Positions 19,405 through 34,792 of a stretch of DNA of 64,000 nt are shown here, in pieces. The stretch lies in the NCBI GenBank assembly GCA_964449285.1, contig CAYUZX010000001.1:67819-131818 (forward strand). The letters are read 5' to 3'. How positions within the stretch are numbered: the stretch's first letter is position 1; each line of letters begins with the position of its first letter. The notes beneath the pieces are model-generated. The model was not told where the DNA came from, did no database searches, and saw only the letters and a program-made list of their open reading frames with translations. The DNA comes from an uncultured Prolixibacteraceae bacterium. Lineage in GTDB: Bacteria; Bacteroidota; Bacteroidia; Bacteroidales; FEN-979. Made by a program: the position numbers and the translations under genes.

Positions 19405-20307
19405 TTGAATTCGCATCATCAAACCGGATCGACCGAACTCAGCGGTGTCAACAGGGCATTTATCATTGGAATCCTTCTCAACCTTCTGTTTGTTGTCATT
19501 GAGTTTGGCGCCGGGTTTTTTCTAAATTCCCTGGCGCTAATCTCTGATGCCGGCCATAACCTGAGTGATGTAGCCAGTTTGACCCTCGCAATGGTTGCAT
19601 TTCGGTTGGCCAAAGTTAAGCCGAACCAGACATTCACTTACGGTCTTAGAAAGTCCACAATCCTAATCTCTCTTCTAAATGCGGTTATCCTGCTAATCGT
19701 AATCGGGGCCATCGCCTTGGAAAGCATCGCCCGGCTGAAAGAGCCACAGCCGGTTCAGGGAGATTACATGGCTGTGGTTGCGGGGGTCGGGATTATCATC
19801 AATACGGTCACTGCACTGCTCTTTTTCAAGAACCGGGAGAAGGACCTCAACATTAAGGGAGCTTTTCTTCATCTTGCTGCAGATGCGTTTGTATCCCTGG
19901 GAGTGGTAGGTACTGGAATCATCATCGGTTTTACCGCATGGTACTGGCTTGACACCGCTGTCAGTTTTGCAATTGTCATCGTGATCCTTATATCTACCTG
20001 GGGTTTGCTGCGTGACAGTACGATCCTGGCACTTGATGGCGTTCCTCGTGGGATAGACCTGGAGAAGGTGAAAGTTGCCATTTTATCCTCGAAAGAGATC
20101 AAAGATGTGCATCATATTCATGTGTGGGCGATGAGCACAACCGAAAATGCACTAACTGCCCACATTGTAGTAGCCCACAATTTCCCCCTCTCCTCTTTTG
20201 AGCCGTTAAAAACAGAAGTTCAAAAAGCTTTGCTGCAGCAAGAAATTCAGCATTCTACGCTAGAGATCGAGCTGGCCGGAGATCCCTGCGCCACAAATAA
20301 CATCTAG
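19405..20307 (+). CDS. czcD: Cation diffusion facilitator (Zn/Co/Cd efflux)
   Basis: SLALISDAGHNLSD and HLAADAFVS (HxxxD pairs), plus a C-terminal cytoplasmic domain. Apparent TTG start. Confidence 0.85.
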   Translation: MNSHHQTGSTELSGVNRAFIIGILLNLLFVVIEFGAGFFLNSLALISDAGHNLSDVASLTLAMVAFRLAKVKPNQTFTYGLRKSTILISLLNAVILLIVIGAIALESIARLKEPQPVQGDYMAVVAGVGIIINTVTALLFFKNREKDLNIKGAFLHLAADAFVSLGVVGTGIIIGFTAWYWLDTAVSFAIVIVILISTWGLLRDSTILALDGVPRGIDLEKVKVAILSSKEIKDVHHIHVWAMSTTENALTAHIVVAHNFPLSSFEPLKTEVQKALLQQEIQHSTLEIELAGDPCATNNI

Positions 20308-20340
20308 AATCATCAAGGAGTAGTGTCTTGTCCACACTGG

Positions 20341-21354
20341 TCAGCATAATTCCAATACACCCGACAATTTCTCAATCATTGAATCTGACACATCGAGGTG
20401 GGTAACCATGCGGATTGTCTGAGGTCCAAAGCCAATGGCAAAGATCCCTGCCTCTTTTAGCTTGGCAAGAAACAGCTCATTGGTCATCGCTTCGGTAAGG
20501 CTAAAAATAATGATGTTGGTTTCAATGGGTGCAACATGTTTAGCAAATGGACATGTTTGCAAAAGTTTCCCAATCCTGGCCGCCCGAACATGGTCGTCGG
20601 CGAGCCTGGTAATATGATGATCGAGGGCGTAAATCCCGGCGGCTGCGAGGTAGCCCGACTGCCGCATAGCTCCTCCGAAAAGTTTCCGCACCCGCCGGGA
20701 TTGACGGATGAACTTCATGGTACTAAGCAAGAGGGAACCCACTGGTGCACCAAGTCCTTTGGAGAGGCAGATCGATATGGAATCGAAGAGCCCTCCCGTC
20801 TCCAGTGGATCAATGCCGGTAGCCACCATGGCATTGAAGAAGCGGGCGCCATCAAGGTGTAGTTTCAAGGAGCGCTCCCGGCACACAGCGCTGATCCGTC
20901 TTAATTCAGCCGGATCATAACAGCTGCCACCACCGCGGTTGGAGGTGTTTTCGACCACAACAAGTCTGGATACCGGATGGTGGATGTCGTCGGGATTGAT
21001 ATTAACTGCCACTTGTTCTGCAGTTATCCGGCCCCTGTTGCCCTGGATCAGCCTCACCGAGGCTCCGGAGTTGAACGCGATCCCTCCACCTTCATATTTA
21101 TAGACATGGGAATTGGCATCGCAGATAACTTCATCTCCCGGACGGGTATGAACGTTGATGGCAATCTGGTTTGTCATGGTGCCGGAAGGGCAGAATAGGC
21201 CGGCTTCCATCCCAAACATGGCGGCAGCTTTTTCTTCAAGGGCAATGACTGATGGGTCATCTCCAAATACATCATCGCCCACCCTGGCTGAAAACATTGC
21301 CTCAAGCATCCCGGGAGTGGGACGGGTAACGGTATCGCTGCGTAAATCTATCAT
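20341..21354 (-). CDS. ltaE: Low-specificity L-threonine aldolase
   Basis: MIDLRSDTVTRPT..., GDDVFGDDPS and the PLP-lysine context SICLSKGLGAPVGS. Confidence 0.85.
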   Translation of the reverse strand: MIDLRSDTVTRPTPGMLEAMFSARVGDDVFGDDPSVIALEEKAAAMFGMEAGLFCPSGTMTNQIAINVHTRPGDEVICDANSHVYKYEGGGIAFNSGASVRLIQGNRGRITAEQVAVNINPDDIHHPVSRLVVVENTSNRGGGSCYDPAELRRISAVCRERSLKLHLDGARFFNAMVATGIDPLETGGLFDSISICLSKGLGAPVGSLLLSTMKFIRQSRRVRKLFGGAMRQSGYLAAAGIYALDHHITRLADDHVRAARIGKLLQTCPFAKHVAPIETNIIIFSLTEAMTNELFLAKLKEAGIFAIGFGPQTIRMVTHLDVSDSMIEKLSGVLELC

Positions 21355-21407
21355 CGGTTCGTTCCGGTTTAATCAGCGATAAAATTACGAAAATTCTGCA
21401 GGATTAA

Positions 21408-21500
21408 CAGGCTGAATTTAGTGGGAAATCGGTTCTTGCATGACAATCAGGTTGAATTTAGTGGGGTTGTAATTCTTGTCACCGTGACAAACAGGCTTAG
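21408..21500. repeat. Direct repeat with a 40-nt period: cagg(c/t)tgaatttagtggg at 21408 and 21448, partial third copy at 21492
   Basis: Two 18-nt cores identical at 17 of 18 positions, 40 nt apart, in the 142-nt spacer upstream of ltaE. Contains the dyad ttgtcac-c-gtgacaa at 21474-21488. Confidence 0.8.
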
Positions 21501-22618
21501 TTTTTAGGGAAAGTGATCCTGAAATGACTTCCCTGGTCAGGCTGGCTGGAAACCGTGATGGATCCGTGATTCAGATCGATCAGCTTTTTTACGATCGACA
21601 ATCCCAAACCACTTCCCGTAATATCTTTTGTTTTTGAGTTTCTTATCCTGACAAACTCTTTGAATAGTTTCCCAGTCTCTTCTTCACTCATCCCGAGTCC
21701 TGTATCTTCCACATCTATAGTTACTTCCAGAGAATTATCCTCAACCTTAAAAAAAACTTCACCTCCCTCACGGTTATACTTTATAGCATTCGACAGCAAA
21801 TTGTTGAAAATGATCTCGATCTCGGAAAGGTCGGAATTGATGTAGAGAGGTTGATCTCCGGAAAAATGGATTTTTACGGATTTCTGGATTGCCATTGGTT
21901 CCATGGAGTGCATAGCCATTCGGGCAACTTCTGTAATATCAACCCGATTAATGTTCCGTTTTTTCTTCCCACTCTCTATCCTGGTTAGGTCGAGCAGGTC
22001 CATAATAAGGCCGCGCATCCCCTTGATCCGTTCCAGGGATCTCGATACCATAACCTGGTAATCATCGATGTCGTTCCCGGCCTGTTTCTCCTGCATGATC
22101 CTAAGGTATCCTTCGATGGCATTGATGGGAGACTTTAACTCATGTGACAGTACCGAAAGAAACTGAAACCGAACCTGTTTGCCCTGTTCGTTCAGTTTTC
22201 TTGTCATTCGTTTGAGGAAGAGATGTTTGGTGATACTCTCCATAGCAGCTTTCAGCTCCTGCGGCGTAAATGGCTTGGGAACAAAATTAAAGGCGCCATT
22301 ATTGGTAGCTTTCACGGCAAGGTCGAGGGAAGCATAAGAGGTTATCATCATCACCTGGGTATCATATTCCTGCTGCCGGATATATTCCAATACTTCGATA
22401 CCATAGATCCCGGGAAGCTTGTTGTCAAGCAATACGATATCAATGGATTCCTTATCAAGAATCTCGATGGCCTCCTCCCCGGATCCTGTTTCTAACGTTT
22501 CAAAACCGAAGTCGTCATCCATGAATGGAAAACCGACTGTGAAATTCCGCAGAACCCTTGTCACTCCTGTACGAATACCGGGTTCATCATCTACAACCAA
22601 TACTTTCAGCATGTTCAT
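21497..22618 (-). CDS. Receiver-histidine kinase fusion (REC, HisKA, HATPase_c)
   Basis: KVLVVDDEP ... DIVLLDNKLP ... KP receiver, H-box LSHELKSPINAI and DTGLGM/GSGLGLSI ATPase boxes. Confidence 0.85.
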   Translation of the reverse strand: MNMLKVLVVDDEPGIRTGVTRVLRNFTVGFPFMDDDFGFETLETGSGEEAIEILDKESIDIVLLDNKLPGIYGIEVLEYIRQQEYDTQVMMITSYASLDLAVKATNNGAFNFVPKPFTPQELKAAMESITKHLFLKRMTRKLNEQGKQVRFQFLSVLSHELKSPINAIEGYLRIMQEKQAGNDIDDYQVMVSRSLERIKGMRGLIMDLLDLTRIESGKKKRNINRVDITEVARMAMHSMEPMAIQKSVKIHFSGDQPLYINSDLSEIEIIFNNLLSNAIKYNREGGEVFFKVEDNSLEVTIDVEDTGLGMSEEETGKLFKEFVRIRNSKTKDITGSGLGLSIVKKLIDLNHGSITVSSQPDQGSHFRITFPKN

Positions 22619-22636
22619 TGCGTGTTGTTTTTGTGG

Positions 22637-23020
22637 TCAGACTTTCAGGAGTTTGTTGATCTCCCGGTGAAGCTGATCGGGTCGAATCCCTTTTTCAATG
22701 TACTTGTCGGCTTTAATCCAACGCTTGTCATCCTCAGTTTCCAAACTGAATTTCATGCCACTGACTGCTGTTACCGAGGTGACGATGATGACCGGGACAT
22801 CCGGATATTTCTTTTTGATCTTGTAACTGAGAATAAATCCACTATCCTGATTTTCCATCATGAGATCGATAATTGCCAGATCAGGTTTCATGGTTTCTAA
22901 CAGCGATTCTCCCTCTTTCTGGGAAGAGGCGGTGATGGGCTGGTATCCGAATCTTAATACGTGAAACTTCAATTGTTCCAGTTGATCAGGATCGTCGTCG
23001 ACCAATAATATTGTTTTCAT
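22637..23020 (-). CDS. Single-domain response regulator (REC only)
   Basis: 127 aa. ILLVDDDPD, DLAIIDLMM, VTS and a late K. Confidence 0.85.
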   Translation of the reverse strand: MKTILLVDDDPDQLEQLKFHVLRFGYQPITASSQKEGESLLETMKPDLAIIDLMMENQDSGFILSYKIKKKYPDVPVIIVTSVTAVSGMKFSLETEDDKRWIKADKYIEKGIRPDQLHREINKLLKV

Positions 23021-23038
23021 TTGTTACTAATTTTGATT

Positions 23039-25015
23039 TTAATTTCGGGGTATGGTTATCCGGAAACGGGTACCAACTGATCCCTTTAAAGGGTCCGTAT
23101 TCGATTCGACGGTAATTTTCCCTTGATGCATTTTTACAATGCCATAAACGAGTGGCAGTCCCAACCCGGTTCCTTTTCCCAACTCTTTGGTGGTAAAAAA
23201 CGGGGTAAACAACTTTTCAATGTTTTCAGACGATATACCTACTCCGGTGTCAGAGATAGAGATCCGGATCTCATCGGCAGTATCTTTCAGGAGAAGTGAA
23301 AGGATCCCCCCGTCGGGCATCGCTTCCACGGCGTTTTTCTCCAGGTTTGTTAGCACCTGCATAAATTGGTCCTGATCCACCATGGCTAGCGGGTCGAGCA
23401 TCTCTGAACGGAAGTTCATAGATACATTGTCGCTGATAATCACCGATCGAAGGCTTTTTTTACAGAAGGCTTCGATGTCTGTTTCGGTTTTTTTTACCTG
23501 GTTTTTCCTGGCGAAGTTGAGCAACCCTCCAACGATGTTTTTGCACCTGTTTGTTTGTTCAACGATAAGTTCAATGTCTTTCCGCGCAGGATCCTCCGGG
23601 CCAGACTCCTCCAGGAGGATGTTTGCATACATGGTGATTACCCCAAGTGGGTTATTCAGTTCGTGTGCAATTCCTGCTGATAGTTGCCCCATGCCTGCCA
23701 GTTTTTCAGATTGTTTGAGAGCTTGCCTTGCATTGGCTAGTTTCTCATTTGACAGGTTAAGTTCTTTTACCGAAAGGTGAAGTTTTTCGATGGTATATGG
23801 AAGGCACATCTCACTTTCGGCCAGGCCCTCAACGATGGCAATCGCATGTTCGGTGCAGGACGGATATCCGCAAGCACCGCAGTTCAGGTGATCTTCGGGC
23901 CTGGTTTTCCCCATCTCCAGCAAAATATGATCAATCTCCTCCTTTGTGGGAAGCGGAAGTCTTCTGTCCCGGGGGAAGAATTGTTCGGAGAAATCCAGGC
24001 CCGCGAACTTCCTGACATTTTTTTGCCATTCCAGATGGTCGTATTGATCCAGTTTTTTTTTGGCATAGTTGCTTATTTGAGAACGTCGTGAATATTTCTG
24101 GCTGGGCTTGCTCATCCCCGGCCCCATGATGCATCCTTCACAACTGAGAAGTTCCAGGTGATGCTTCAGTGTCCCGCATTCAAATTCCTGAATGGCTTCT
24201 TTGTAGTTTTCTCTCCCTTCGGCAACAACAATATCTCCCTTGAAAATATCGTCACTGTTGTTTACGGTCTGCAGCATACCCCGGCTTACAGGATAAATGG
24301 CTCCTTTCCCGGCAAGAGGAGGGTCGAAACTGGAAGCCATACCTGGTTTTGGAACTACATTATTACGCTTGAACAGTTCCCTGAGTTCTACATAGGTTAG
24401 TACAGCGTCAACTTCTGTGGATTCAGCTTTTTTTGCGATGCAGGGCCCAATAAAAACTACCTTGGTTTCTGACCCATAAAGCTCACGGACAATCCGGGCG
24501 GTGGCGACCATTGGAGAGGCAACCGGAGCCAATGAAGGAACCAGGTTGGGATGATAATGTTCGATATAGTAGACAATTGCAGGGCAATCACTGGAAATAA
24601 CAGACGGATTTTCCGGATTGTCGAAAAGCTTGTTGTATTCCAGGGAGACCATATCGGCTCCGAATCCTACCTCCACCACATAGTCAAATCCAAGCTTGCG
24701 GATCATCTCTACCAACAAAGTATGGTCAGTGATTTCGTTGAACTCGGCAGGAAAACTCGGCGCTATGCAGGCAGCCACCGATCCGGGTGTACGTAATAGT
24801 TCTTCGGCTTCACCCGTAGTGTCCAGGTAGATTTTTGCTCCCTGACTACACACCTTTACACAATTGCCACAGGCAATGCACCGCTCGTTCATCACTTCAG
24901 CCTGGCCGTTATTGATCCGGATTGCCTTTACCGGGCACTCTCTCACACAGGTGAAACAAACCCTGCACCGGTCTTTCACCGTATATACTAATTGCCGTCT
25001 TGCCTGGTAATTCAT
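23039..25015 (-). CDS. Sensory-type [FeFe]-hydrogenase-like domain fused to a histidine kinase (2x[4Fe-4S] ferredoxin, H-cluster domain, Cx2Cx4Cx16C, HisKA, HATPase_c)
   Basis: Two CxxCxxCxxxCP motifs (aa 17-28, 46-57). H-domain motifs are divergent: L1 SSDCP (canonical TSCCP), L2 GPCIAKKAE, L3 ELLSCEGCIMGPG. Then C379-x2-C-x4-C-x16-C404, H-box AHELNNPL and ATPase boxes (DTGVGI, GTGLGLPL). Confidence 0.8.
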   Translation of the reverse strand: MNYQARRQLVYTVKDRCRVCFTCVRECPVKAIRINNGQAEVMNERCIACGNCVKVCSQGAKIYLDTTGEAEELLRTPGSVAACIAPSFPAEFNEITDHTLLVEMIRKLGFDYVVEVGFGADMVSLEYNKLFDNPENPSVISSDCPAIVYYIEHYHPNLVPSLAPVASPMVATARIVRELYGSETKVVFIGPCIAKKAESTEVDAVLTYVELRELFKRNNVVPKPGMASSFDPPLAGKGAIYPVSRGMLQTVNNSDDIFKGDIVVAEGRENYKEAIQEFECGTLKHHLELLSCEGCIMGPGMSKPSQKYSRRSQISNYAKKKLDQYDHLEWQKNVRKFAGLDFSEQFFPRDRRLPLPTKEEIDHILLEMGKTRPEDHLNCGACGYPSCTEHAIAIVEGLAESEMCLPYTIEKLHLSVKELNLSNEKLANARQALKQSEKLAGMGQLSAGIAHELNNPLGVITMYANILLEESGPEDPARKDIELIVEQTNRCKNIVGGLLNFARKNQVKKTETDIEAFCKKSLRSVIISDNVSMNFRSEMLDPLAMVDQDQFMQVLTNLEKNAVEAMPDGGILSLLLKDTADEIRISISDTGVGISSENIEKLFTPFFTTKELGKGTGLGLPLVYGIVKMHQGKITVESNTDPLKGSVGTRFRITIPRN

Positions 25016-25027
25016 TGGTTTGAGGGA

Positions 25028-26752
25028 TTACAGGAGTACATCGCGCTGACAATAGGTTGTATGGAGTAGTTTATGACTTTTCAGACTGAGGGGGCTTCCC
25101 AGGAAGTTCTGATAAAGTTCGAGGACTTCAGGGTTTTTATGGGAGACTTTGATGGTTTCTGTTTCGTCGATCTGATAGAGCGCCTGCATACGTTTCCGGA
25201 TAACATCCGGATGTTTACCAAGTGGCTGGCCACCACCGCCGATACATCCTCCCGGACAAGCCATGATTTCGATAAAATGAAGATCATTTCTCCCATTTCG
25301 GATCTCATCCAGCAATTTTTTTGCATTGGACAATCCATTTACCACCGCTACACCAAGTTGTAAATCGCCAATCTGGATTTTTGCCTCTTTTCGTCCGGCA
25401 CAACCTCTGACTTGCTGGATCCTATACTGCTTCAATTCTTTATTGGTGAGTTTAAAACAGGCTGTTCGCAGCGCTGCCTCCATAACTCCTCCCGAGGCTC
25501 CGAATAGTTTACCAGCTGAACTTCTTACCCCATGTGGCGAGTCAGCCGTTTCGGATTCCAGTTTATCCACTCCGATGCCAAATAGCCGGATGAAATCTGC
25601 CAACTCCCGGGTTGTCAGTACGGCATCGATATCAGAGATCCCTTTCTGCGTCATCTCTTCACGTTGCCCTTCGAATTTTTTCGCCGGGCAGGGCATAATT
25701 GCCACGACGTACAGGTTTTCCGGTTTAATGCCGGAATTTTCGGCATAATAGCTTTTAAGTACAGCTCCCAGCATCTGTTGAGGAGATTTACAACTGGAGA
25801 GGTTCGGGAGAAAATCGCAGGCGAACTCTTCAGCATACTTGATCCATGCCGGACAGCAAGAGGTTATCAAAGGAAGATGATCCTCATCCTTAATCCTTTC
25901 TATAAGCTCAGCCGACTCTTCCATAATAGTCAAATCAGCTGCGAAAGTGGTATCGAATATCCTGTCAAACCCAATTTTCCGAAGTGCAGCATTCAGGAGT
26001 CCGTTCACATCGGTTCCGGGAGCCATCCCAAACTCTTCGGCGAGCGTAACGGAAATGGCCGGTGCATATTGAACCACAACGGTTTTCGATGGATCCCCGA
26101 GAGCATCCCTGATTTCAGCGAAGTGATTTTTTTCAGAGAGGGCTCCCGTCGGACAAACCATGATACATTGCCCGCAGTTAATACAACTTGACGTGTTTAA
26201 CCCTTTGTTAAACGTGGGTCCGATCAGGGTCTGACTGCCCCTGTTGATGAAGTCGATTGCCGACACTTCCATCACTTCGGAGCATACTTTTACGCACCTT
26301 CCACAGAGGATGCATTTGGCCGGGTCGCGCACGATACTGGCACTTGACAGATCAAGGTGATGCCGGTTTTTCTCTCCACTGATTCTGCGTTCGGTGATGC
26401 AGTGTTCCCGGGCAAGATTCTGCAGGTCGCAGTTGCCATTGCGAACACAGTAGAGGCAGTCGTCGGGATGATTTGAGAGCAGCAGTTCAACGATCGTCTT
26501 ACGGGCTTCAATCACTCTGGGGGAGTGCGATTTGATCTCCATGCCCTGTTCCACTGTATAGGAGCAGGCGGTGATGAGCTTTCCTGTTTGTTCATTCTCA
26601 ACCACGCACATCCGGCAAGCCCCTGAAGGGAGAAAACCCTTCATGTGACACAGGGTAGGGATGCGGATTCCTTCTCGTTCCAGTACATCCAGCAGCAGTT
26701 CTCCTTGTTCTGCTTTCACCGGGTTGTTGTTGATCGTTATCGTTAGTTCCAT
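25028..26752 (-). CDS. hydA: [FeFe] hydrogenase catalytic subunit, HydA (multimeric A3-like)
   Basis: N-terminal 2Fe-2S and His-ligated cluster domains, 2x[4Fe-4S], then canonical TSCCPAW, MPCPAKKFE and EIMACPGGCIGGGGQP. Confidence 0.9.
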   Translation of the reverse strand: MELTITINNNPVKAEQGELLLDVLEREGIRIPTLCHMKGFLPSGACRMCVVENEQTGKLITACSYTVEQGMEIKSHSPRVIEARKTIVELLLSNHPDDCLYCVRNGNCDLQNLAREHCITERRISGEKNRHHLDLSSASIVRDPAKCILCGRCVKVCSEVMEVSAIDFINRGSQTLIGPTFNKGLNTSSCINCGQCIMVCPTGALSEKNHFAEIRDALGDPSKTVVVQYAPAISVTLAEEFGMAPGTDVNGLLNAALRKIGFDRIFDTTFAADLTIMEESAELIERIKDEDHLPLITSCCPAWIKYAEEFACDFLPNLSSCKSPQQMLGAVLKSYYAENSGIKPENLYVVAIMPCPAKKFEGQREEMTQKGISDIDAVLTTRELADFIRLFGIGVDKLESETADSPHGVRSSAGKLFGASGGVMEAALRTACFKLTNKELKQYRIQQVRGCAGRKEAKIQIGDLQLGVAVVNGLSNAKKLLDEIRNGRNDLHFIEIMACPGGCIGGGGQPLGKHPDVIRKRMQALYQIDETETIKVSHKNPEVLELYQNFLGSPLSLKSHKLLHTTYCQRDVLL

Positions 26753-26763
26753 GTTCTTATGAA

Positions 26764-28605
26764 TTAAACCATTACAGTGATAGCATCGAATTTACAGGCC
26801 TCTTCGCATGCACCACAGCCGATACATTTATCCTCTATGATGAAGTGGGGCGTTTTTTTCGAGCCAACAATGGCATTCACCGGGCATTTTCGGGTGCACA
26901 CTGTGCATCCGGTGCATTTATTCACATCAATAGTAAACGTCCTCAGCGAGGTGCAGACTCCGGCAGGGCATTTCCGTTCGAAGATATGACTCTCATATTC
27001 ATGCCTAAACCACTTTAACGTACTCAACACCGGGTTAGGGGCAGAGTGCCCCAGGCCGCATAGTGAAGTGTCTTTGATTACTGCACTCAACTTCTCCAAT
27101 TGCATGATCCCCTTGAACCGTTTAAGAGCATCATATCGCTCTCCCTGTGCTGGTTTCCGGGTGATACTTTCAAGGATCTCCAGCATCCTTCGTGTTCCTT
27201 CCCGGCAGGGGATGCATTTGCCGCAACTCTCACGCTGGATAAAGTCCATGAAAAATTTGGCTATATCCACCATGCAAGTCTCTTCATCCATCACCACCAG
27301 ACCTCCCGAGCCCATCATGGCACCTACCGATATCAGGGAATCGTAATCCACTTCAATACCAAGGTTGGCTTCTGTAATGCATCCTCCGGAGGGTCCACCG
27401 ATTTGCACCGCTTTGAATGCTTTATTGTTCCTGATCCCTCCTGCCATATCGAAGATGATTTCGCGGAGGGTGGTTCCCATAGGAATTTCGATAAGCCCTG
27501 TTTGGGAGACTTTTCCTGATAATGCAAATACTTTGGTCCCTTTACTTCGGGCGGTGCCGATAGATGCAAACCAAGAAGCTCCTTTTTCTATGATGGTTGG
27601 AATGTTTGCCAGTGTTTCGACGTTATTGATGACTGTTGGTTTCCCGAACAACCCACTTTCCGAAGGGTAAGGAGGGCGAGGTTTAGGCATTCCCCGTTTC
27701 CCTTCAATACTCTCGAGCAGGGCAGTCTCTTCTCCGCATACAAATGCTCCGGCACCCATCTTGATATGGATCTCAAAGCTGAAATCTGAGCCAAAGATTT
27801 GAGACCCCAGAAAGCCGGCTTCCTTGCTTTGTTCAAGTGCAATCCGCAACCGGGCGATAGCCAATGGATATTCGGCACGGATGTAAACATACGCTTTACT
27901 TGCTCCGATGGCATACCCTGCAATAGCCATGCCTTCGATGAGCCGGTGCGGATCCCCTTCAATCACAGCGCGATCCATAAATGCACCCGGATCCCCTTCA
28001 TCAGCATTGCAAACCAGGTATTTCTGGTCTGCATACTCCCCGGCAGCAAGTTTCCATTTCTTTCCTGTTGGGAATCCACCACCTCCACGCCCCCTGAGTC
28101 CGCTTTGTTCAATTAAATCACATACCTCTTCAGGGGAAAATTCGCGGAGAGACTTTAACAGCGAATCGTATCCACCTGTATTTTGGTAGTCCTGAATACT
28201 GACAGGGTTGATGATCCCACAATTTTTAAGGACCAATCGTTGCTGTTTTGCAAAAAAAGGCAAGTCGTCCATGAAGACTACACCTTCCCAGGCTTTCATC
28301 CCTTCCTCCCTGAATTGTCCCAGAACATTTGAAGTGGGGAGTTTTCCTGTCAATACCTCATCCAGAATATCATTAACTCTATTGCTTGACACCTGTTGGA
28401 GACATAATCTGGTACGCCCTGGAAGGTGGATATCCATCAGGGGCTCTGACGAGCATAACCCGATGCATCCAACTTCAATGAGGTTTGCCTGGATGCAATG
28501 GCTCTCCAGGTATTCATTTACGCTGAGCAGGATAGCTCCTGCGCCGGCTCCTTGTCCGCAGGTGCCCGACCCTATGTAAATGTTAGGAAGCTTCTCTGTA
28601 TTCAT
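26764..28605 (-). CDS. hydB: NuoF-like flavoprotein subunit, HydB
   Basis: N-terminal thioredoxin-like Cys domain, GRGGGGFPTGKKW (FMN), ESCGKCIPCREG (N3 cluster) and a C-terminal 2x[4Fe-4S]. Confidence 0.9.
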   Translation of the reverse strand: MNTEKLPNIYIGSGTCGQGAGAGAILLSVNEYLESHCIQANLIEVGCIGLCSSEPLMDIHLPGRTRLCLQQVSSNRVNDILDEVLTGKLPTSNVLGQFREEGMKAWEGVVFMDDLPFFAKQQRLVLKNCGIINPVSIQDYQNTGGYDSLLKSLREFSPEEVCDLIEQSGLRGRGGGGFPTGKKWKLAAGEYADQKYLVCNADEGDPGAFMDRAVIEGDPHRLIEGMAIAGYAIGASKAYVYIRAEYPLAIARLRIALEQSKEAGFLGSQIFGSDFSFEIHIKMGAGAFVCGEETALLESIEGKRGMPKPRPPYPSESGLFGKPTVINNVETLANIPTIIEKGASWFASIGTARSKGTKVFALSGKVSQTGLIEIPMGTTLREIIFDMAGGIRNNKAFKAVQIGGPSGGCITEANLGIEVDYDSLISVGAMMGSGGLVVMDEETCMVDIAKFFMDFIQRESCGKCIPCREGTRRMLEILESITRKPAQGERYDALKRFKGIMQLEKLSAVIKDTSLCGLGHSAPNPVLSTLKWFRHEYESHIFERKCPAGVCTSLRTFTIDVNKCTGCTVCTRKCPVNAIVGSKKTPHFIIEDKCIGCGACEEACKFDAITVMV

Positions 28606-29044
28606 TTATAATTTTCTTTAACGTATCAACCGTAACTTTTGCATGGAATATCTTGTTGACACAAATTACAGGCGCTAACCCGCAGGCGCCAATGCATGCA
28701 ACAACTTCAATACTGAAGAGACCGTCGCGTGTGGTTTGACCTGCCTTAATCTTTAGGTCTTTCTCCAGGGATTCCAACACTGTTGCGGATCCCAGGACAT
28801 GACAAGCAGTGCCTCTACAAACCTGAATATGGTATTTGCCCTGCGGCTCAAACCTGAACTGGTTGTAAAATGTTGCTACGCCATAGATGCGGCTTGTTGG
28901 CACATGCAGGTGCTTCCCCACTTTAACAATAGAATCTTCAGAGAGATATCCGGTGCGACCCTGTATCTCCTGAAGGATTGGGATCAGGCTCTCTTTGCCG
29001 GCATTGGCGTAGGTGGACAGAATCTCCTCATCAGCAGTTTTCAT
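28583..29044 (-). CDS. hydC: NuoE-like [2Fe-2S] subunit, HydC
   Basis: VCRGTACHV ... VACIGACGLAP pattern. 23-nt overlap with hydB. Confidence 0.9.
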   Translation of the reverse strand: MKTADEEILSTYANAGKESLIPILQEIQGRTGYLSEDSIVKVGKHLHVPTSRIYGVATFYNQFRFEPQGKYHIQVCRGTACHVLGSATVLESLEKDLKIKAGQTTRDGLFSIEVVACIGACGLAPVICVNKIFHAKVTVDTLKKIINEYREAS

Positions 29045-29071
29045 TTGATCCGATTTAGATATGTTTCAGAA

Positions 29072-29572
29072 TCAGGCTTTCAGAAGTTTTGCAATGACTG
29101 GAAGGAGGTTATTGGAATCAACTGGTTTTCTTACAAATCCCTTTACAGGAACCCAGATACTGGTACCCTCTTCCGATAAATAATCTACTCCTGCTTCCCC
29201 TTTCAGGATGTCCTTGACCAAAAGCACCTGTAACTCTTTGTATTTTCTGTCTTTCCTAAACTCTTTGGCCATCTGTTCGACGCTCAGATTGGTGGTTGTG
29301 AGTACGTCGATGGAGGTTTGCATAACGATTGACATAGAGCTTAATTCAGGCGATTCGCTGAATGCTTTTGCCAACTCAAACCCTTCATAATGGGTAGTCA
29401 TCATCACATCGAGGATGGCTAAATCGGGTTTGACATTGTTGGCAATTTCCAGTGCTTCAGTTTTATTGTAAGCAGGATAGACAACGTATCCTTCGTGTTC
29501 AAGGATGGTTTTTAGTACATTGATAACATCACTGTCATCATCGACAATCAGAATTTTTGATTTTGTTTCCAT
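29072..29572 (-). CDS. Response-regulator receiver with an insertion of about 45 aa between beta4 and beta5; first gene of the hyd operon
   Basis: METKSKILIVDDDSD, DLAILDVMM, VMQTS, then 64 residues (about 20 expected) before VRKP. ATG at 29572 is preferred because the track start at 29608 abuts the -7 box. Confidence 0.75.
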   Translation of the reverse strand: METKSKILIVDDDSDVINVLKTILEHEGYVVYPAYNKTEALEIANNVKPDLAILDVMMTTHYEGFELAKAFSESPELSSMSIVMQTSIDVLTTTNLSVEQMAKEFRKDRKYKELQVLLVKDILKGEAGVDYLSEEGTSIWVPVKGFVRKPVDSNNLLPVIAKLLKA

Positions 29573-29612
29573 GACTTTGTGTACAATTATTATTGTTAAT
29601 AAATTCACAAAG

Positions 29613-29643
29613 CAAAAGTATATCCGGATAATACCCTATACAA
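29613..29643 (-). promoter_or_regulatory. hyd operon promoter: TTG (29643-29641), 20-nt spacer, TACTTTTG (29620-29613)
   Basis: Read on the minus strand; 40 nt upstream of the ATG at 29572. Confidence 0.5.
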
Positions 29644-29689
29644 GGGTAAAACCTGCAGCAGAGGTGCCAGGTAAAAACACCTGTATTGA

Positions 29690-29730
29690 GATGTTAACAT
29701 CAAGATAATCAGTAACAAACAAGCTTGATG
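29690..29730. promoter_or_regulatory. Candidate operator: 12-bp perfect palindrome GATGTTAACATC (29690-29701) overlapping inverted repeat CATCAAG (29698-29704) / CTTGATG (29724-29730)
   Basis: Read directly. Lies about 50-90 nt upstream of the -33 element of the hyd promoter. Confidence 0.4.
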
Positions 29731-29781
29731 TGAAGAAAGGAAGGTTCTCAATTTTTTTTACGATTAAATCGTATTAGATTG

Positions 29782-29841
29782 AGAGACTGTTAAATAAAAT
29801 GCATTTTTTTTAAAAAAAAATGATTAGAGAAGAGAGTCTCT
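29782..29841. promoter_or_regulatory. 60-bp imperfect palindrome centred on T8A9 (29804-29820) with outer arms agagact / agtctct
   Basis: Arms lie at 29782-29788 and 29835-29841. The symmetry centre falls exactly at the T/A junction 29811|29812. Confidence 0.5.
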
Positions 29842-29873
29842 TTCCCGAAGCAGGTATTTTCTGCAGGGTTAAA

Positions 29874-29887
29874 AAGCCTGGAGGCTT
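29874..29887 (-). terminator. Weak intrinsic terminator after the LuxR-type regulator (AAGCC-UCCA-GGCUU followed by UUUAA)
   Basis: 5-bp stem, 4-nt loop and a short U tract on the minus-strand transcript, 27 nt after the stop at 29914. Confidence 0.35.
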
Positions 29888-29913
29888 AACAAAAGGAGGG
29901 GGTATAAACAGTA

Positions 29914-30555
29914 TCAGGTCTTGATTAACCCATTTTTTATTGCATACATTACCAGGTGTGGAGCATTTTTTGCCCCTGTTTTTTCGAATAAGTGTGCTCT
30001 ATGCCCATCAATAGTCCGTTGACTCAGGCCAAGGTGTTTTGAAATTTCGGCATTCGATTGCCCTTTGCATATCAGTTCAAGAATTTCCTTTTCGCGGGAA
30101 GTTAAAACGATTTCCGGTTGTTTGCGTTGTTGCAGAACAGGTTGTTTCTGCATTCCACTCATGAACTCCTCCGAAAAGTAGTGTTCATCACATACTACAG
30201 CAAAGATGGCTTTCTCCAGTTCGTCCTGGGTGGTTTTTTTAAGAAGGAAACCGGTGGCTCCCACCTCTATCATTTTATTGAAATAGCTGATTTCTTCATG
30301 CATTGTAAGTGCAATAATTCGAATATCCGGATATTGGACCACTATTTTCCGTGTTGCCTCGATGCCATCCATCTTTGGCATCTTGATATCCATCAGAATT
30401 ACGTCGGCAGGTGTTTTCTTGAGTAAGTCCAGTAGTTCATAACCGTTTGCTGCTTCTCCAACCACTTTGATTTGATTAATCTCGTTTAGGATGGTAAAGA
30501 GTCCTTTCCTGAAAATGACATGATCGTCGGCAATGATGACTTTAATGATATCCAT
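29914..30555 (-). CDS. NarL/LuxR-family response regulator
   Basis: REC (IIADDHVIFR, DVILMDIKMP) plus a C-terminal HTH (LTSREKEILELICKGQSNAEISKHLGLSQRTIDGHR). Confidence 0.9.
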   Translation of the reverse strand: MDIIKVIIADDHVIFRKGLFTILNEINQIKVVGEAANGYELLDLLKKTPADVILMDIKMPKMDGIEATRKIVVQYPDIRIIALTMHEEISYFNKMIEVGATGFLLKKTTQDELEKAIFAVVCDEHYFSEEFMSGMQKQPVLQQRKQPEIVLTSREKEILELICKGQSNAEISKHLGLSQRTIDGHRAHLFEKTGAKNAPHLVMYAIKNGLIKT

Positions 30556-30565
30556 AATCGTTGAT

Positions 30566-32668
30566 CTATTCGTTCTTTAATTTCACGGAGATGGTCATGA
30601 ACATCCCTTTACCTCTGGTTGTATTCAGGTCACAGGTACCGTTGATGGTCTTGACTTTATTTAATATATTGTATAGTCCCAGTCCCGACCGGTTCTTCAT
30701 CGCGGCATCCTGATCAAAACCGGTTCCATCATCCCGGTAATAGAAGATGATTTGGCTGTCAATACTCTTCAGATCAATGAGCACGTTTTTGGCTTGTGCA
30801 TGACGCAACGTGTTGTTGATAAGCTCTTTGGTAACCTGAAACAGGATCGACTCCTCAATACCCCGTTTTGCAATCGTATATTGTTCGGTGCGTAAATCAA
30901 TTTTAATTGATTTAGCTTCGTTGATGAAGCTGCAAAACTCGGTGATCGCTGCAGCCAATCCAAAATCCTGGAGAACGTTGGGGCGGATCCTGTTGGATAT
31001 TTCACGGCTGGTTCTGATTGCTATATCGATCAGTTCATTGATATTTTCAACGGTCTCCCCTTTGTCTATATTTTTATGATCTCCTCGCTTGAGGACATCA
31101 GTATAGAGCTTGATGGTTGAGAGAATGGGACCGAGATCGTCGTGGAGATCGGCGGCAAACCGCTGTCGTTCGCTTTCTTCCGTAGAGATAATCGCTTTCA
31201 GGATACGTTCCTCCACCTCTTTCCTTTCAGTGATATCGCGTGCAATACTTAAAATACGTTTTTCTCCATTGTACTCAATTACCCTGCTTTTCATCTCTAT
31301 CGGGATCACATTCCCTGCTCTGGAAACATTCTCCGTTTCGTAGCGATACTGGCCAAAATGTTTGATCATATCCAGATTTTTCTGTACATCCCGGCGATAT
31401 TTTTCGGATCTCAGTTCACGGAAATGTTTGCCGATGAGCTCTTCGCGGGAATAGCCCAGGTTGTCGCAGCTCACCTGATTCACTTCAAGGATGAATCCAT
31501 CAAAGTCACCGATAAATATCTCATCGCTGGAGCTGTTGAAGATGGTTCGGAATTGCTCTTCCGATCGTTCAAGCGCCTCCCTGATGGAGGCAAGCTGTTT
31601 ATCGGTCCGCTCAATTTGCAGGAGGTATTTATAGAGATTTTTCTTCGTGAGGATATAGATAAACAATGAAAACAGGATAATGGTGATCACCGCAATGATT
31701 AGAGCATTTCGAATAATCGTTGTCGTAAGCTGACGGGACTCATTTGTAGGGTCGATGGCCGCACAGATATATAATTTGAAGTCAGGAAAATATTCAAACG
31801 CGACCTTTTTTTTCTGTTCATCCTCCGGAAACAAAATAGTTACCAACCCGGATTGTTTCCCCTGGACCTGCTGGAGAAGATCGGATGGGATTTGTTCTCC
31901 CTGGAGCTGCGGGTGAATGACGAGTGTACCAGTTTCGTTGAATGCAAACACATATCCAGTCTTGCCTATTATCACGTTGTTGAGGATTGTCCTCAACTCG
32001 CCCAGGTCCTTCTCCAGATCGCCCATATAGAGCATCCCAACCACTGCTCCATTCCAGAAAATCGGCTCGTAGGTGGTGACGTACCAGTCATTGACAACAA
32101 AGGCCCGTCCAAAATATGTTTTACCCTGTTTCACAGTTTGAATGACAGGCGAGTCGTTCGGGATGAACGTCCATGCAGCCCTTTTTCCGCTATCATTCAA
32201 CACGTTGGTCGAAATTCGGACAAACCCGCTGTCAATTTTCTGGAATATGGTTGTCGTGCCACCGACCAGCCAATGAATACGATCAACAAAAGAGGAGTCC
32301 CCATTTAACAGGATGCCATCGAGGTACCATAGATTCAATTCTTCTGATTGAGTGCCATGCGTGATCTGGTTGGTGACCTCTACGCTGGTTTTGTGTGATG
32401 ATATCCTCAAATTATTACTATAGAAAAGCGAATGAAGAACGTTCAGATCTCGTGATACTTTATCGAGTTTAAGGCTCCTTTCCCGTTCGAACATCCTGGC
32501 TATGGTACTGACCTCAATTCGAAGATTGTTATCAATGATCCGCTGAATTTCACGTTTCGACATCCGGATACTGACCCAGGTTAGAATCGATACCGCGATT
32601 ATGATTCCCAGTAAAACGGGGGAGAAGAGTTTCAGTTTAACCAACAATCCGACAAAACGGCCGTGCAT
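30566..32668 (-). CDS. Sensor histidine kinase (TM, Cache-like periplasmic domain, TM, PAS, HisKA_3, HATPase_c)
   Basis: Two TM segments flank about 300 aa. PAS ([16 protein letters not shown]), HisKA_3 H-box (AADLHDDLGPILS) and a C-terminal ATPase. Confidence 0.85.
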   Translation of the reverse strand: MHGRFVGLLVKLKLFSPVLLGIIIAVSILTWVSIRMSKREIQRIIDNNLRIEVSTIARMFERERSLKLDKVSRDLNVLHSLFYSNNLRISSHKTSVEVTNQITHGTQSEELNLWYLDGILLNGDSSFVDRIHWLVGGTTTIFQKIDSGFVRISTNVLNDSGKRAAWTFIPNDSPVIQTVKQGKTYFGRAFVVNDWYVTTYEPIFWNGAVVGMLYMGDLEKDLGELRTILNNVIIGKTGYVFAFNETGTLVIHPQLQGEQIPSDLLQQVQGKQSGLVTILFPEDEQKKKVAFEYFPDFKLYICAAIDPTNESRQLTTTIIRNALIIAVITIILFSLFIYILTKKNLYKYLLQIERTDKQLASIREALERSEEQFRTIFNSSSDEIFIGDFDGFILEVNQVSCDNLGYSREELIGKHFRELRSEKYRRDVQKNLDMIKHFGQYRYETENVSRAGNVIPIEMKSRVIEYNGEKRILSIARDITERKEVEERILKAIISTEESERQRFAADLHDDLGPILSTIKLYTDVLKRGDHKNIDKGETVENINELIDIAIRTSREISNRIRPNVLQDFGLAAAITEFCSFINEAKSIKIDLRTEQYTIAKRGIEESILFQVTKELINNTLRHAQAKNVLIDLKSIDSQIIFYYRDDGTGFDQDAAMKNRSGLGLYNILNKVKTINGTCDLNTTRGKGMFMTISVKLKNE

Positions 32669-32682
32669 GAAGTTCCTTTTTG

Positions 32683-32690
32683 CAAAGGTA
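32683..32690 (-). promoter_or_regulatory. -7 box TACCTTTG, 14 nt upstream of the kinase ATG at 32668
   Basis: The reverse complement of caaaggta matches TAnnTTTG. Confidence 0.4.
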
Positions 32691-32728
32691 TGGAAAGTTC
32701 GTATTTTCGCTAGCTAATCTTTCGGTTT

Positions 32729-34792
32729 ATGATTAACGAACAACTACTCAACCCCCGCAGCATTGTTGTCGTTGGAGGCTCAAACGACAAGGAGAAACCA
32801 GGTGGTGCGGTGCTCAGGAATTTGATCGAACAGAAATTCAGGGGAGATCTTTTTGTTATCAATCCAAAGGAGTCGGCTGTTCAGGGAATCCGCAGTTATC
32901 AGGACCCATCGCAATTGCCGAATGTAGACCTGGCAATTCTAGCTATTGCTGCAAAATATATCCCAGCAACGGTTAAGCTGCTTGCAAGGCTCAAAAATAC
33001 CAGAGCTTTTATCGTATTATCAGCGGGTTTCAGTGAAGAGAGTGAAGAAGGAAGGACTCTCGAACACGATCTGGTTGAAGCAGTAAATTCGGTGAATGGA
33101 GCTTTGATCGGTCCTAATTGCATTGGCGTGCTTACTCCCGACTATGCCGGTGTCTTTACAAAACCAATTCCTATTCTCGATCGTAGTGGCTGTGATTTCA
33201 TCTCCGGGTCGGGAGCAACCGCCTGTTTTATCATGGAGGCGGGAATCCCTATTGGCCTGACATTTTCCCGGGTATTTTCGGTCGGTAACAGTGCCCAAAT
33301 GGGGGTGGAGGAGGTCCTGAAATACATGGATGAGACGTATGATTCTGAGCTGAGTGCACGGACCAAATTGCTTTACATGGAGACCATCTCCAAGCCACGG
33401 ATGCTCCTGAGACATGCCTCCTCGTTGATTCGTAAAGGGTGCCGGATAGCCGCCATCAAAGCCGGCACTTCCGAAGCGGGAAGCCGTGCCGCCTCTTCCC
33501 ATACCGGCGCTCTGGCCAGTTCGGATGTAGCGGTGGAAGCACTATTCCGGAAAGCAGGCATCGTGAGATGTTATGGACGAGATGAATTGATCAATGTGGC
33601 ATCTATCTTTCAATACCCGGCATTGCAGGGTAAGAATATGGCAATCATCACTCATGCAGGAGGACCAGCTGTGATGCTCACGGATGCCCTTTCGATGGGA
33701 GAAATGGCAGTTCCGAGGATAGAAGGAGAGGCGGCAGATGAACTTTTGCATCAACTGTATCCTGGTTCGTCGGTAACCAACCCGATCGATTTCCTGGCAA
33801 CTGGAAATGCTGAACAGCTTGGAACTATCATTGATTTTGTTGAGAATCGGTTTGATAACATTGACGGGATGGCTGTGATTTTCGGAACTCCCGGACTCAC
33901 CCGCGTATTCAACGAGTATCGCGTGCTGGATAAGAAAATGAAACAATGCAAAAAACCAATCTTCCCTATCCTGCCTTCGATTCTCACTGCAGAAGAAGAG
34001 ATTGATGAATTTATAGGGAGGGGACATACCTATTTCCCGAAAGAGGTCCTCTTTGGGAATGCACTCTCGATGGTTATGCATACACCTCCTCCCTCCAACC
34101 TTGATCCTGATCTTCCCGAAGTTGATACGAAAGCCATCAGGAAAATTATTGATAGCACGCAACCAGGGTATATCTCTCCTAAAGAGATTCAGGGATTGCT
34201 CGATGCATGCTGGATTCCCAGGGCTGGCGAGACAGTGGTGGCCACAGCCGAAGATGCTAAATTGGCAGCGAATGAACTGGGCTTTCCTGTTGTGATGAAG
34301 GTGGTTGGGCCGGTCCATAAATCGGATGTTGGTGGGGTTGTATTGAATGTCACAACTGAAGAGAGGTTGCTGAACGAGTTTCACCGGATGATGCAAATCC
34401 CCTATACTACTGGCATTTTGTTCCAACCGATGCTCTCAGGAATAGAACTCTTTATTGGAGCCAAATACGAGACGGGCTTTGGGCATCTGATCCTCTGCGG
34501 GTTGGGTGGGATTTTTATCGAAGTGCTTAAGGACACCTCGGCAGGACTCTCGCCGCTTGACCAGGAGGAAGCCCTGGCGATGATCCGGCGCCTGAAAAGT
34601 TATAAAATAATCCAGGGCGTACGTGGCCAGAAAGGAGTCAACGAGTATAAGTTTGCCGAAATCATGTTAAGACTATCTTCCTTGCTTCAGGCTGCGCCCG
34701 AGATTGTCGAACTTGATTTCAATCCCTTGCTGGGAAACGGGGATTCGATTATAGTAGTTGATGCACGGATACGCATTGAACGAGGGAAGTAA
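32729..34792 (+). CDS. ADP-forming acetyl-CoA synthetase (fused alpha/beta; CoA-binding, succinyl-CoA-synthetase-like and ATP-grasp domains)
   Basis: N-terminal SIVVVGGSNDKEKPGG, ligase-CoA region with SHTGALAS (phosphohistidine loop) and a C-terminal ATP-grasp (GFPVVMKVVGPVHKSDVGGV). Confidence 0.85.
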   Translation: MINEQLLNPRSIVVVGGSNDKEKPGGAVLRNLIEQKFRGDLFVINPKESAVQGIRSYQDPSQLPNVDLAILAIAAKYIPATVKLLARLKNTRAFIVLSAGFSEESEEGRTLEHDLVEAVNSVNGALIGPNCIGVLTPDYAGVFTKPIPILDRSGCDFISGSGATACFIMEAGIPIGLTFSRVFSVGNSAQMGVEEVLKYMDETYDSELSARTKLLYMETISKPRMLLRHASSLIRKGCRIAAIKAGTSEAGSRAASSHTGALASSDVAVEALFRKAGIVRCYGRDELINVASIFQYPALQGKNMAIITHAGGPAVMLTDALSMGEMAVPRIEGEAADELLHQLYPGSSVTNPIDFLATGNAEQLGTIIDFVENRFDNIDGMAVIFGTPGLTRVFNEYRVLDKKMKQCKKPIFPILPSILTAEEEIDEFIGRGHTYFPKEVLFGNALSMVMHTPPPSNLDPDLPEVDTKAIRKIIDSTQPGYISPKEIQGLLDACWIPRAGETVVATAEDAKLAANELGFPVVMKVVGPVHKSDVGGVVLNVTTEERLLNEFHRMMQIPYTTGILFQPMLSGIELFIGAKYETGFGHLILCGLGGIFIEVLKDTSAGLSPLDQEEALAMIRRLKSYKIIQGVRGQKGVNEYKFAEIMLRLSSLLQAAPEIVELDFNPLLGNGDSIIVVDARIRIERGK

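Follow-up and report, generated by a model that had tools for sequence, protein, structure and literature searches.

We analysed a 64,000-nucleotide stretch of DNA, called the window below, from an uncultured Prolixibacteraceae bacterium (assembly GCA_964449285.1, contig CAYUZX010000001.1, positions 67,819 to 131,818). In the window of this Bacteroidota fermenter, the genes of a hydrogen-producing [FeFe]-hydrogenase, hydCBA, are followed by a gene encoding a protein we call HydS-HK. This 658-residue protein (minus strand, 23039-25015, defined by open reading frame, translation, Pfam, an AlphaFold2 (AF2) model and Foldseek) joins a putative sensory [FeFe]-hydrogenase to a histidine kinase. We consider it probable that HydS-HK is a cytoplasmic H2-responsive sensor kinase, co-expressed with HydABC, that uses a hydrogenase-derived domain (the H-domain) and three accessory [4Fe-4S] clusters as its input. 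Judged from its sequence, HydS-HK appears to be a member of a known and catalogued class, the kinase-linked division of the putative sensory group C. HydDB describes its group C1 as "histidine kinase-linked (putative)" and as possibly sensing H2 (Søndergaard, Pedersen & Greening 2016, PMC5037454), and C1 remains "putatively sensory" in a 2026 preprint (10.64898/2026.06.24.733704).

The domain composition of HydS-HK is clear. Pfam finds a Fer4 dicluster, Fe_hyd_lg_C (PF02906; residues 80-299, 148.9 bits, E 2.6e-43), a four-Cys Fe-S domain (PF04060; residues 377-406), HisKA (residues 443-505, 51.4 bits) and HATPase_c (residues 547-657, 83.6 bits), and no PAS domain; no NCBIfam model reaches its cut-off for the fusion protein. 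An initial annotation of this DNA had read the same order, followed by a receiver (REC) gene and a REC-HisKA-HATPase gene, and Pfam agrees throughout. The three open reading frames lie behind hydA on the minus strand with exactly the gaps it gave (12, 18 and 18 nt), and the motifs it named are all where it placed them: SSDCP (L1, residues 141-145, 24581-24595), GPCIAKKAE (L2, residues 190-198), L3, Cx2Cx4Cx16C and AHELNNPL. Its claim of two CxxCxxCxxxCP ferredoxin motifs needs one amendment. The first (residues 17-28) has this form, while the second (residues 46-57, CIACGNCVKVCS) ends in CS; all eight cysteines of this [4Fe-4S] pair (minus strand, 24848-24967) are invariant in 118 homologues. 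The L3 motif, ELLSCEGCIMGPG (residues 288-300), has CxxC spacing, one residue less than the canonical CxxxC. The C-terminal Cx2Cx4Cx16C motif (residues 379-404, minus strand, 23804-23881), which lies in PF04060, is invariant in 130 diverse representatives.

Structural comparison points the same way. The AF2 model, built with 69 diverse sequences, has a mean predicted local distance difference test score (pLDDT) of 94.1 and a predicted template modelling score (pTM) of 0.76. In Foldseek searches the N-terminal 400 residues matched the hydrogenases CbA5H, TkHydA, DdH and CpI with E values of about 1e-17 to 1e-20, and the C-terminus matched the kinase core of ZraS; no sensory hydrogenase was among the top structure and PDB matches. 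The H-domain (minus strand, 24119-24778), delimited by PF02906, alignment to the window's own HydA and residue invariance, thus has the family match, the fold and the four candidate ligating cysteines of the [FeFe]-hydrogenase superfamily, the last pair as CxxC. The initial annotation was right to see a divergent homologue with sensory hallmarks: HydS-HK lies outside group A and shows all the structural traits by which the putative sensory groups C and D are described. SSDCP, GPCIAKK and ELLSCEGC stand in place of the group A motifs TSCCP, MPCxxK and ExMxCxxGCxxG, and the C299-E279-S319-E282-R286 proton pathway is lost.

The residues that would surround an H-cluster are partly retained. The candidate cluster cysteines C144, C192, C292 and C295 are invariant in the 118 homologues and in a set of 82 kinase-fused ones that span 42-100% identity. 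The residues equivalent to those that hold the cyanide ligands or line the 2Fe site in CpI (A85-P86-S87, S167-P168, K195 and E198) are likewise invariant in these 82, which suggests that the H-cluster pocket of the kinase-fused family is under selection. Other parts of the active site have changed: in CpI numbering, G190 takes the place of Met353, L290 that of Met497, and D143 occupies the position of the proton-relay cysteine, Cys299. Aligned to the window's HydA, the proton pathway is dismantled, with E279 replaced by Y127, E282 deleted, R286 replaced by L130 and S319 replaced by A163. At the Cys299 position, the wider family is hypervariable, with T, P, A, S, N, H or D. Asp is present there in 40/40 homologues with at least 55% identity and never below 53%. 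In engineered enzymes, Asp is the only replacement for Cys at this position with which the H-cluster is retained and 30-80% of the H2-evolving activity remains; its carboxylate forms a hydrogen bond with the bridgehead amine (PMC6226526, PMC9563086). In this Bacteroidota lineage the substitution is naturally fixed.

The connection between the sensor and the kinase is equally conserved. In the AF2 prediction, residues 405-470 form one continuous helix that begins right after C404, the last cysteine of the four-Cys motif, and includes His451 of the H-box. The part that joins the two (residues 405-450, minus strand, 23666-23803) is a leucine-heptad signalling helix, as indicated by the model, spacing counts and hydrophobicity. 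Positions 405, 412, 419, 426 and 433, all Leu in HydS-HK, are 98-100% Leu, Ile, Val or Met in relatives. Among 235 distinct kinase-fused relatives, 208 have a spacing of exactly 47 residues from the C404-type cysteine to the His451-type histidine. The remaining short spacings (33, 40, 54 and 68) follow 47±7n, with just four proteins off-register, and the longer ones contain inserted PAS domains. This register reads as a signature of coiled-coil signal transmission of the kind known from FixL-type and LOV-FixL kinases. From residue 423 onward, HydS-HK aligns with the kinase core and linker of FixL and of the LOV-FixL chimera YF1 (PDB 4gcz), and YF1 linker variants reportedly follow a heptad rule much like the linker lengths seen here. 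What differs is the input, in HydS-HK a putative Fe-S/H-cluster module whose last cluster ligand directly adjoins the helix. The transmitter itself (HisKA with H451 plus HATPase_c, minus strand, 23045-23689) is apparently functional. It has the H-box and the N, G1, F and G2 boxes expected of a HisKA-type kinase, with AHELNNPL (residues 450-457), NLEKNAVEA, DTGVGI, FTPFFTTK and GTGLGL in its sequence; H451 is invariant, and among solved structures ZraS (E 2.4e-32) and KinB come closest.

Rarity is not supported by the homologue counts: the architecture is very common, with hundreds of homologues in Bacteroidota. We found 118 full-length homologues with at least 61% identity, nearly all labelled Bacteroidales or Bacteroidota. 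For the sensor module (residues 1-440), a library of 1.8 billion proteins contains 973 cluster representatives matching at E<1e-30, and the class was already catalogued as HydDB C1 (PMC5037454). The nearest genomes are Prolixibacteraceae and Bacteroidales metagenome-assembled genomes at 87% identity, and the identical protein occurs on 23 metagenome contigs. By their L3 motif the representatives split in two, one clade with CxGGC (canonical, about 575 residues) and one, including the window protein, with CxGC. At least 22 of 58 proteins scanned from the CxGGC clade carry PAS, in a set that also held three longer CxGC-type proteins; this PAS-bearing clade is the TmHydS-like type. Among 69 representatives of the CxGC clade, the module is fused to HisKA/HATPase in 40, to a sigma-54 activator with HTH_8 in 13 and to GGDEF in four, a few having an additional PAS. 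A single module that has recombined with three different signalling outputs behaves like an input domain, and we regard this module-swapping as the strongest sequence-based argument for a sensory role. The sigma-54 and GGDEF fusions would be one-component transcription factors and cyclases responsive to H2 or redox state. They combine the same elements (two Fer4, a CxxC H-domain and the four-Cys motif) and lie among representatives P0121-P0270 of alignment A2; our literature search found no paper on either kind.

TmHydS (M2f, group C) and TamHydS (M2e, "group D") are the only characterised putative sensory [FeFe]-hydrogenases, and both show sensor-like properties (PMC8163306). HydS-HK shares with them two N-terminal [4Fe-4S] clusters, the C-terminal Cx2Cx4Cx16C motif and adjoining HydABC genes (PMC8163306), here with hydA 12 nt upstream. 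It also shares the replacement of the proton-relay cysteine and of Met353 and Met497, the latter two being G/L in HydS-HK, G/S in TmHydS and S/L in TamHydS. These are the traits by which sensory groups C and D are recognised (PMC8163306). It differs from both in its direct kinase fusion through a coiled coil, in an L3 of CxxC rather than CxxxC, and in having Asp rather than a non-protic residue at the proton-relay position. TmHydS additionally has a PAS domain; HydS-HK, in which residues 405-470 are a single predicted helix, has neither the PAS behind the four-Cys motif nor the CxxxC of the M2f type.

The catalogued C1 class shares with HydS-HK the divergent H-domain, two N-terminal [4Fe-4S] motifs, the C-terminal four-Cys motif, the link to a histidine kinase and a place beside a bifurcating-type group A hydrogenase; the difference is that the kinase of HydS-HK is fused and not merely adjacent. 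Previous reports include a Bacteroidales C1 gene next to hndABCD in Petrimonas mucosa (ING2E5A_0849; PMC7768429) and Hydrogenedentota C1 proteins with HATPase_c, whose motifs were doubted (PMC11406978). The Petrimonas protein lends indirect support to placing HydS-HK in C1. One C1 reference that we compared, Thermoanaerobacter wiegelii WP_014062652.1, has ISSACP, SPCAAK and CxxxC and is only a distant relative, with about 150 bits against either clade, which makes C1 a heterogeneous label. The same protein is TamHydS-like (M2e or "group D" elsewhere) and is labelled C1 in HydDB Supplementary Dataset S1, sheet "Last fixes" (PMC5037454), so "C1" and "group D" overlap in the literature. A separate name may be warranted for the kinase-fused CxxC clade. 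Within the limited library available to our literature search, neither kinase-fused nor sigma-54-fused sensory [FeFe]-hydrogenases appear in any biochemical study, and the conserved gene triad, the fixed Asp and the 47-residue linker are described nowhere.

The genomic setting ties HydS-HK to a hydrogenase and to receivers. The fused sensor-transmitter stands at the end of a bifurcating-type hydCBA cluster, with partners whose phospho-acceptor residues are intact. The minus-strand row runs REC166-hydC-hydB-hydA-hydS-HK-REC127-REC-HK with successive gaps of 27, -23, 11, 12, 18 and 18 nt and no Shine-Dalgarno sequence ahead of the cluster genes. It opens with REC166, a stand-alone receiver of 166 residues directly upstream of hydC (29072-29572; Pfam REC and translation). 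There follow hydC, a NuoE-like [2Fe-2S] subunit (28583-29044; Pfam 2Fe-2S_thioredx), hydB, a NuoF-like flavin mononucleotide/NADH subunit (26764-28605; Complex1_51K, NADH_4Fe-4S and Fer4), and hydA, the catalytic large subunit (25028-26752; motifs, Pfam and NCBIfam). HydA has the canonical motifs already reported for it (TSCCPAW, MPCPAKKFE and EIMACPGGCIGGGGQP) and scores 806 bits against NCBIfam NF040763, the NADH-dependent [FeFe]-hydrogenase, whose cut-off is 765. Behind hydS-HK lie REC127, a stand-alone receiver of 127 residues (22637-23020), and REC-HK, a receiver-histidine kinase hybrid of 373 residues (21497-22618; gene callers put the start at 22612). Upstream of the whole row are genes for a LuxR/NarL-type response regulator (29914-30555) and a Cache-PAS-HisKA_3 kinase with Cache_3-Cache_2, PAS and HisKA_3 domains (30566-32668), both also on the minus strand, assigned by Pfam and forming a pair.

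This arrangement recurs in 84 related loci at 42-87% identity, where hydCBA, the sensor-kinase, the receiver and the receiver-kinase remain linked in about 80-87%. Of the 63 loci with enough sequence, 55 have REC-HK downstream of the sensor-kinase, 51 have a small REC next to it and 49 have both; in some lineages the small receiver is ahead of the sensor-kinase and not behind it. HydA is directly upstream in 55/65. Intergenic gaps have a median of about 18 nt, with 4-nt overlaps in several gene pairs. rex occurs in 30/84 loci, often right behind REC-HK, and hydG and hydE in 27-28/84. Genomes at 62-63% identity have the order REC, hydCBA, hydS-HK, REC, REC-HK, hydG(F)E, Cache-PAS kinase and LuxR regulator. 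In L094 and L095 the orthologous Cache kinase/LuxR pair comes after hydGFE; in L001, L003, L014, L015, L017 and L045 it lies upstream, as in the window. REC166 orthologues precede hydC in L001-L003, L014, L015, L017, L045, L094 and L095. Many of the related loci (L016, L018-L020, L022, L024, L027-L029, L031-L034, L036, L037, L040-L042, L046, L079 and L081) also have a second HydS-like gene of about 620-640 residues, without a kinase, divergent from hydC on the opposite strand. One representative of this size, P0144 (ASNDP, GPDIASK), has lost H-cluster cysteines. The window has no such kinase-free second gene.

The row of seven genes, REC166 through REC-HK, is probably transcribed as one unit. 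A scan of 20300-33000 for sigma-70 promoters and intrinsic terminators gave counts equal to those in shuffled sequence and is uninformative for a Bacteroidota genome, so we used the Bacteroidota -7 motif TAnnTTTG instead. This motif is enriched in the window (62 observed versus 40 ± 5.9 in shuffles) and often lies 15-45 nt upstream of start codons. On the coding strand of 21497-29620 it occurs twice, once inside the REC-HK gene and once as the candidate -7 box TACTTTTG (minus strand, 29613-29620), 41 nt before REC166. The latter is the single match upstream of a gene start, which is consistent with one seven-gene transcript.

Two further candidate elements lie at this promoter. Between the -7 box and REC166 is the window's only Rex-like operator, TTGTGAATTTATTAACAA (minus strand, 29593-29610), with one mismatch to TTGTGAA-N4-TTCACAA, which we take to be the Rex operator consensus. 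It is conserved in three orthologous promoters (L001, L003 and L014) with diverged flanks, and Rex-like sites with at most two mismatches occur within 900 nt upstream of hydC in 11/43 loci, against 16/860 background segments. The hyd cluster would then be under additional, NADH-sensing control by Rex. About 50 nt upstream of the -7 box is the perfect palindrome CAGGT-N6-ACCTG (29668-29683), a candidate regulator site with no second perfect copy in the window; L003 and L014 conserve it, and in L001 it is degenerate. It may be the binding site of the neighbouring LuxR-type regulator or of another dimeric factor.

The partner proteins look competent to receive a phosphoryl group. REC127 is REC alone in Pfam, and its key residues (D8/D9/D10, D52, T81 and K110) are invariant or nearly so in 62 orthologues. 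REC-HK (REC, HisKA and HATPase_c) keeps D10/D11, D65, T93, K115 and H159 invariant or nearly so in 57 orthologues, with D65 and H159 strictly invariant. REC166 has an insertion of about 50 residues and, by inspection, the same set of receiver residues. HydS-HK and its partners thus have the defining features of a HisKA-type histidine kinase and of response-regulator receivers.

How these parts are wired is less certain than was proposed. The initial annotation suggested a multi-step relay feeding back on hydrogenase expression, which overstates what the genes offer. Neither Pfam nor NCBIfam finds a histidine phosphotransferase (Hpt) domain or an output domain in HydS-HK, REC127, REC-HK or REC166. 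The triad of HydS-HK, REC127 and REC-HK has neither the Hpt or Spo0B-like transferase nor the terminal output regulator of a His-Asp-His-Asp phosphorelay, and REC-HK, having a full catalytic domain, is a kinase and not a transferase. Because the triad includes no Hpt or DNA-binding output, a phosphorelay feeding back on transcription is one of several possible wirings. A cascade from kinase to receiver-kinase, in which the small receiver would serve as a branch or phosphate sink, suits the data better than a strict phosphorelay. The LuxR-type regulator was considered as the output of the triad and dropped as a firm claim, since its own partner, the HisKA_3 kinase, adjoins it. Similar sets, which combine a first kinase with a separate receiver and an Hpt-less receiver-kinase hybrid in one gene group, are CheA3-CheS3 of Rhodospirillum centenum and RedCDEF of Myxococcus xanthus. 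Homology to these is limited to generic two-component domains. A parallel in logic is HoxBC-HoxJ-HoxA (HupUV-HupT-HupR; HydDB [NiFe] group 2b), in which a crippled hydrogenase serves as an H2 sensor steering a histidine kinase and thus hydrogenase genes. There, however, the metal centre and fold are unrelated, sensor and kinase are separate polypeptides, and an NtrC-type output regulator is defined.

We infer a mechanism in which the H-domain binds an H-cluster and reacts slowly with H2. By alignment, the canonical proton pathway is dismantled, with only Asp143 left next to the active site, so that electrons would alter the redox state of the accessory clusters instead of sustaining turnover. 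Cys404, the predicted fourth ligand of the C-terminal cluster, caps the leucine-heptad helix that runs in fixed register over 47 residues to His451. A redox change at this cluster would move the coiled coil and thereby switch autophosphorylation on or off. The phosphoryl group might then pass to Asp52 of REC127, Asp65 of REC-HK or both, and the REC-HK kinase, through His159, may relay or integrate the signal toward a response regulator. With the Rex-like operator on the same promoter, the NADH-dependent HydABC, or fermentation branches relying on it, would be tuned by H2 back-pressure together with NADH/NAD+.

Several observations weigh against an H2-sensing kinase of this kind. Besides the lack of Hpt and output domains, the shortened C292-x-x-C295 loop could alter or block attachment of the 2Fe subcluster, and the AF2 model is a monomer free of cofactors. 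The characterised TmHydS and TamHydS belong to clades other than the CxxC-L3 clade. Searches with the proteins of related loci found no hydE, hydF, hydG or rex in the 64-kb window, so the maturase linkage is drawn from other genomes only, and co-transcription is judged from spacing and motifs only. The main competing explanation takes up some of these points. HydS-HK could be a redox sensor kinase for the ferredoxin pool or electron flux, whose H-domain keeps only a [4Fe-4S] cluster as in Nar1/NARF-type proteins and whose four clusters report the reduction of ferredoxin or HydABC. The divergent L1-L3 and the CxxC of L3 would suit such a protein, as would the hypervariable Cys299 position in the wider family and the want of maturase genes within the window; a survey that hardly found the P1-P3 motifs in group C1 also doubted H2 sensing (PMC11406978). 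A plain [4Fe-4S] site would not need K195, S87, P86, P168 and E198, which hold the diatomic ligands in CpI and are invariant here at 42-100% identity. In addition, hydG, hydE and hydF frequently share the cluster in relatives (for example, L094 and L095), and H-cluster binding is known from related sensory enzymes (PMC8163306). Both the invariance of the ligand-binding residues and the maturase linkage weaken this explanation, and we think it unlikely.

Two other functions are much harder to reconcile with the data. Group C proteins have been handled as a "T" subunit of Bfu complexes (PMC11406978) and a metabolic role has been raised (PMC8542988). With its gene 12 nt behind hydA and travelling with hydCBA, HydS-HK might be an additional catalytic or electron-transfer "T subunit" of HydABC, its kinase-like domain being structural or ATP-dependent and not used for signalling. 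Such a role would leave the intact H-box with its invariant His, the receivers with intact Asp that always accompany the kinase, and the fusion of the same module to sigma-54 activators and GGDEF, all signalling elements, without explanation, and the proton pathway required for turnover is gone; we regard it as very improbable. Least probable of all is that HydS-HK senses CO, O2 or NO as a stress or protection switch for an oxygen-labile hydrogenase. H-clusters do bind CO and react with O2, and sensory-type enzymes have altered reactivity toward both (PMC8163306), but the neighbourhood has no oxidative or nitrosative stress genes, and the tight, ancient linkage runs to hydABC, the maturases and Rex.

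A more speculative extension of the H2-sensor reading, which we think unlikely, is that the Bacteroidota proteins form a distinct subclass of H2 sensors. Such a subclass would combine an Asp terminal proton acceptor, a mechanical, register-locked readout and an exit through output-less receivers and a second kinase. With an Asp that has no onward pathway, H2 would be split stoichiometrically and not catalytically, and reduction of the C-terminal cluster would be read through the register-locked coiled coil that starts at the cluster ligand. The signal would act on proteins, such as HydABC or the Cache kinase/LuxR pair, rather than via a dedicated DNA-binding partner.

To a specialist, HydS-HK will be an unsurprising and genomically typical member of a catalogued class, and it offers a good experimental handle on the signal output of [FeFe]-type sensory proteins. 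The two studied sensory enzymes have no assayable output, while a direct kinase fusion offers a simple readout, namely autophosphorylation that depends on H2 and phosphotransfer to two or three defined receivers. For mutagenesis, the invariant 47-residue linker with its heptad register and the naturally fixed Asp are precise targets. Such proteins are abundant in anaerobic Bacteroidota of sediments, digesters and guts. H2 back-pressure decides the fermentation products in these habitats, so the system probably matters for the community H2 economy.

Some features of the flanks remain to be described. The Cache kinase/LuxR-type pair, which accompanies hyd clusters of other Bacteroidota as well (L094 and L095), is flanked by the hyd cluster on one side and by a divergent ADP-forming acetyl-CoA synthetase-like gene (32729-34792) on the other, and it may sense a fermentation acid. 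In this sub-lineage, no DNA-binding protein other than the LuxR-type regulator is retained near the cluster; the best NCBIfam resemblance of this regulator is to MctR, at a score under the cut-off. At the other end, the spacer between the REC-HK stop and a threonine-aldolase-like gene holds an 18-nt direct repeat, CCCACTAAATTCA[A/G]CCTG (21408-21465), in copies 40 nt apart. A 15-nt palindrome, TTGTCACGGTGACAA (21476-21490), begins 7 nt past the REC-HK stop codon, and no canonical terminator was found in the spacer behind REC-HK. In the spacer behind the LuxR-type regulator gene is a T9/A9-type palindrome, CATTTTTTTT-A-AAAAAAAATG (29802-29822), which may be a terminator or a bendable element.

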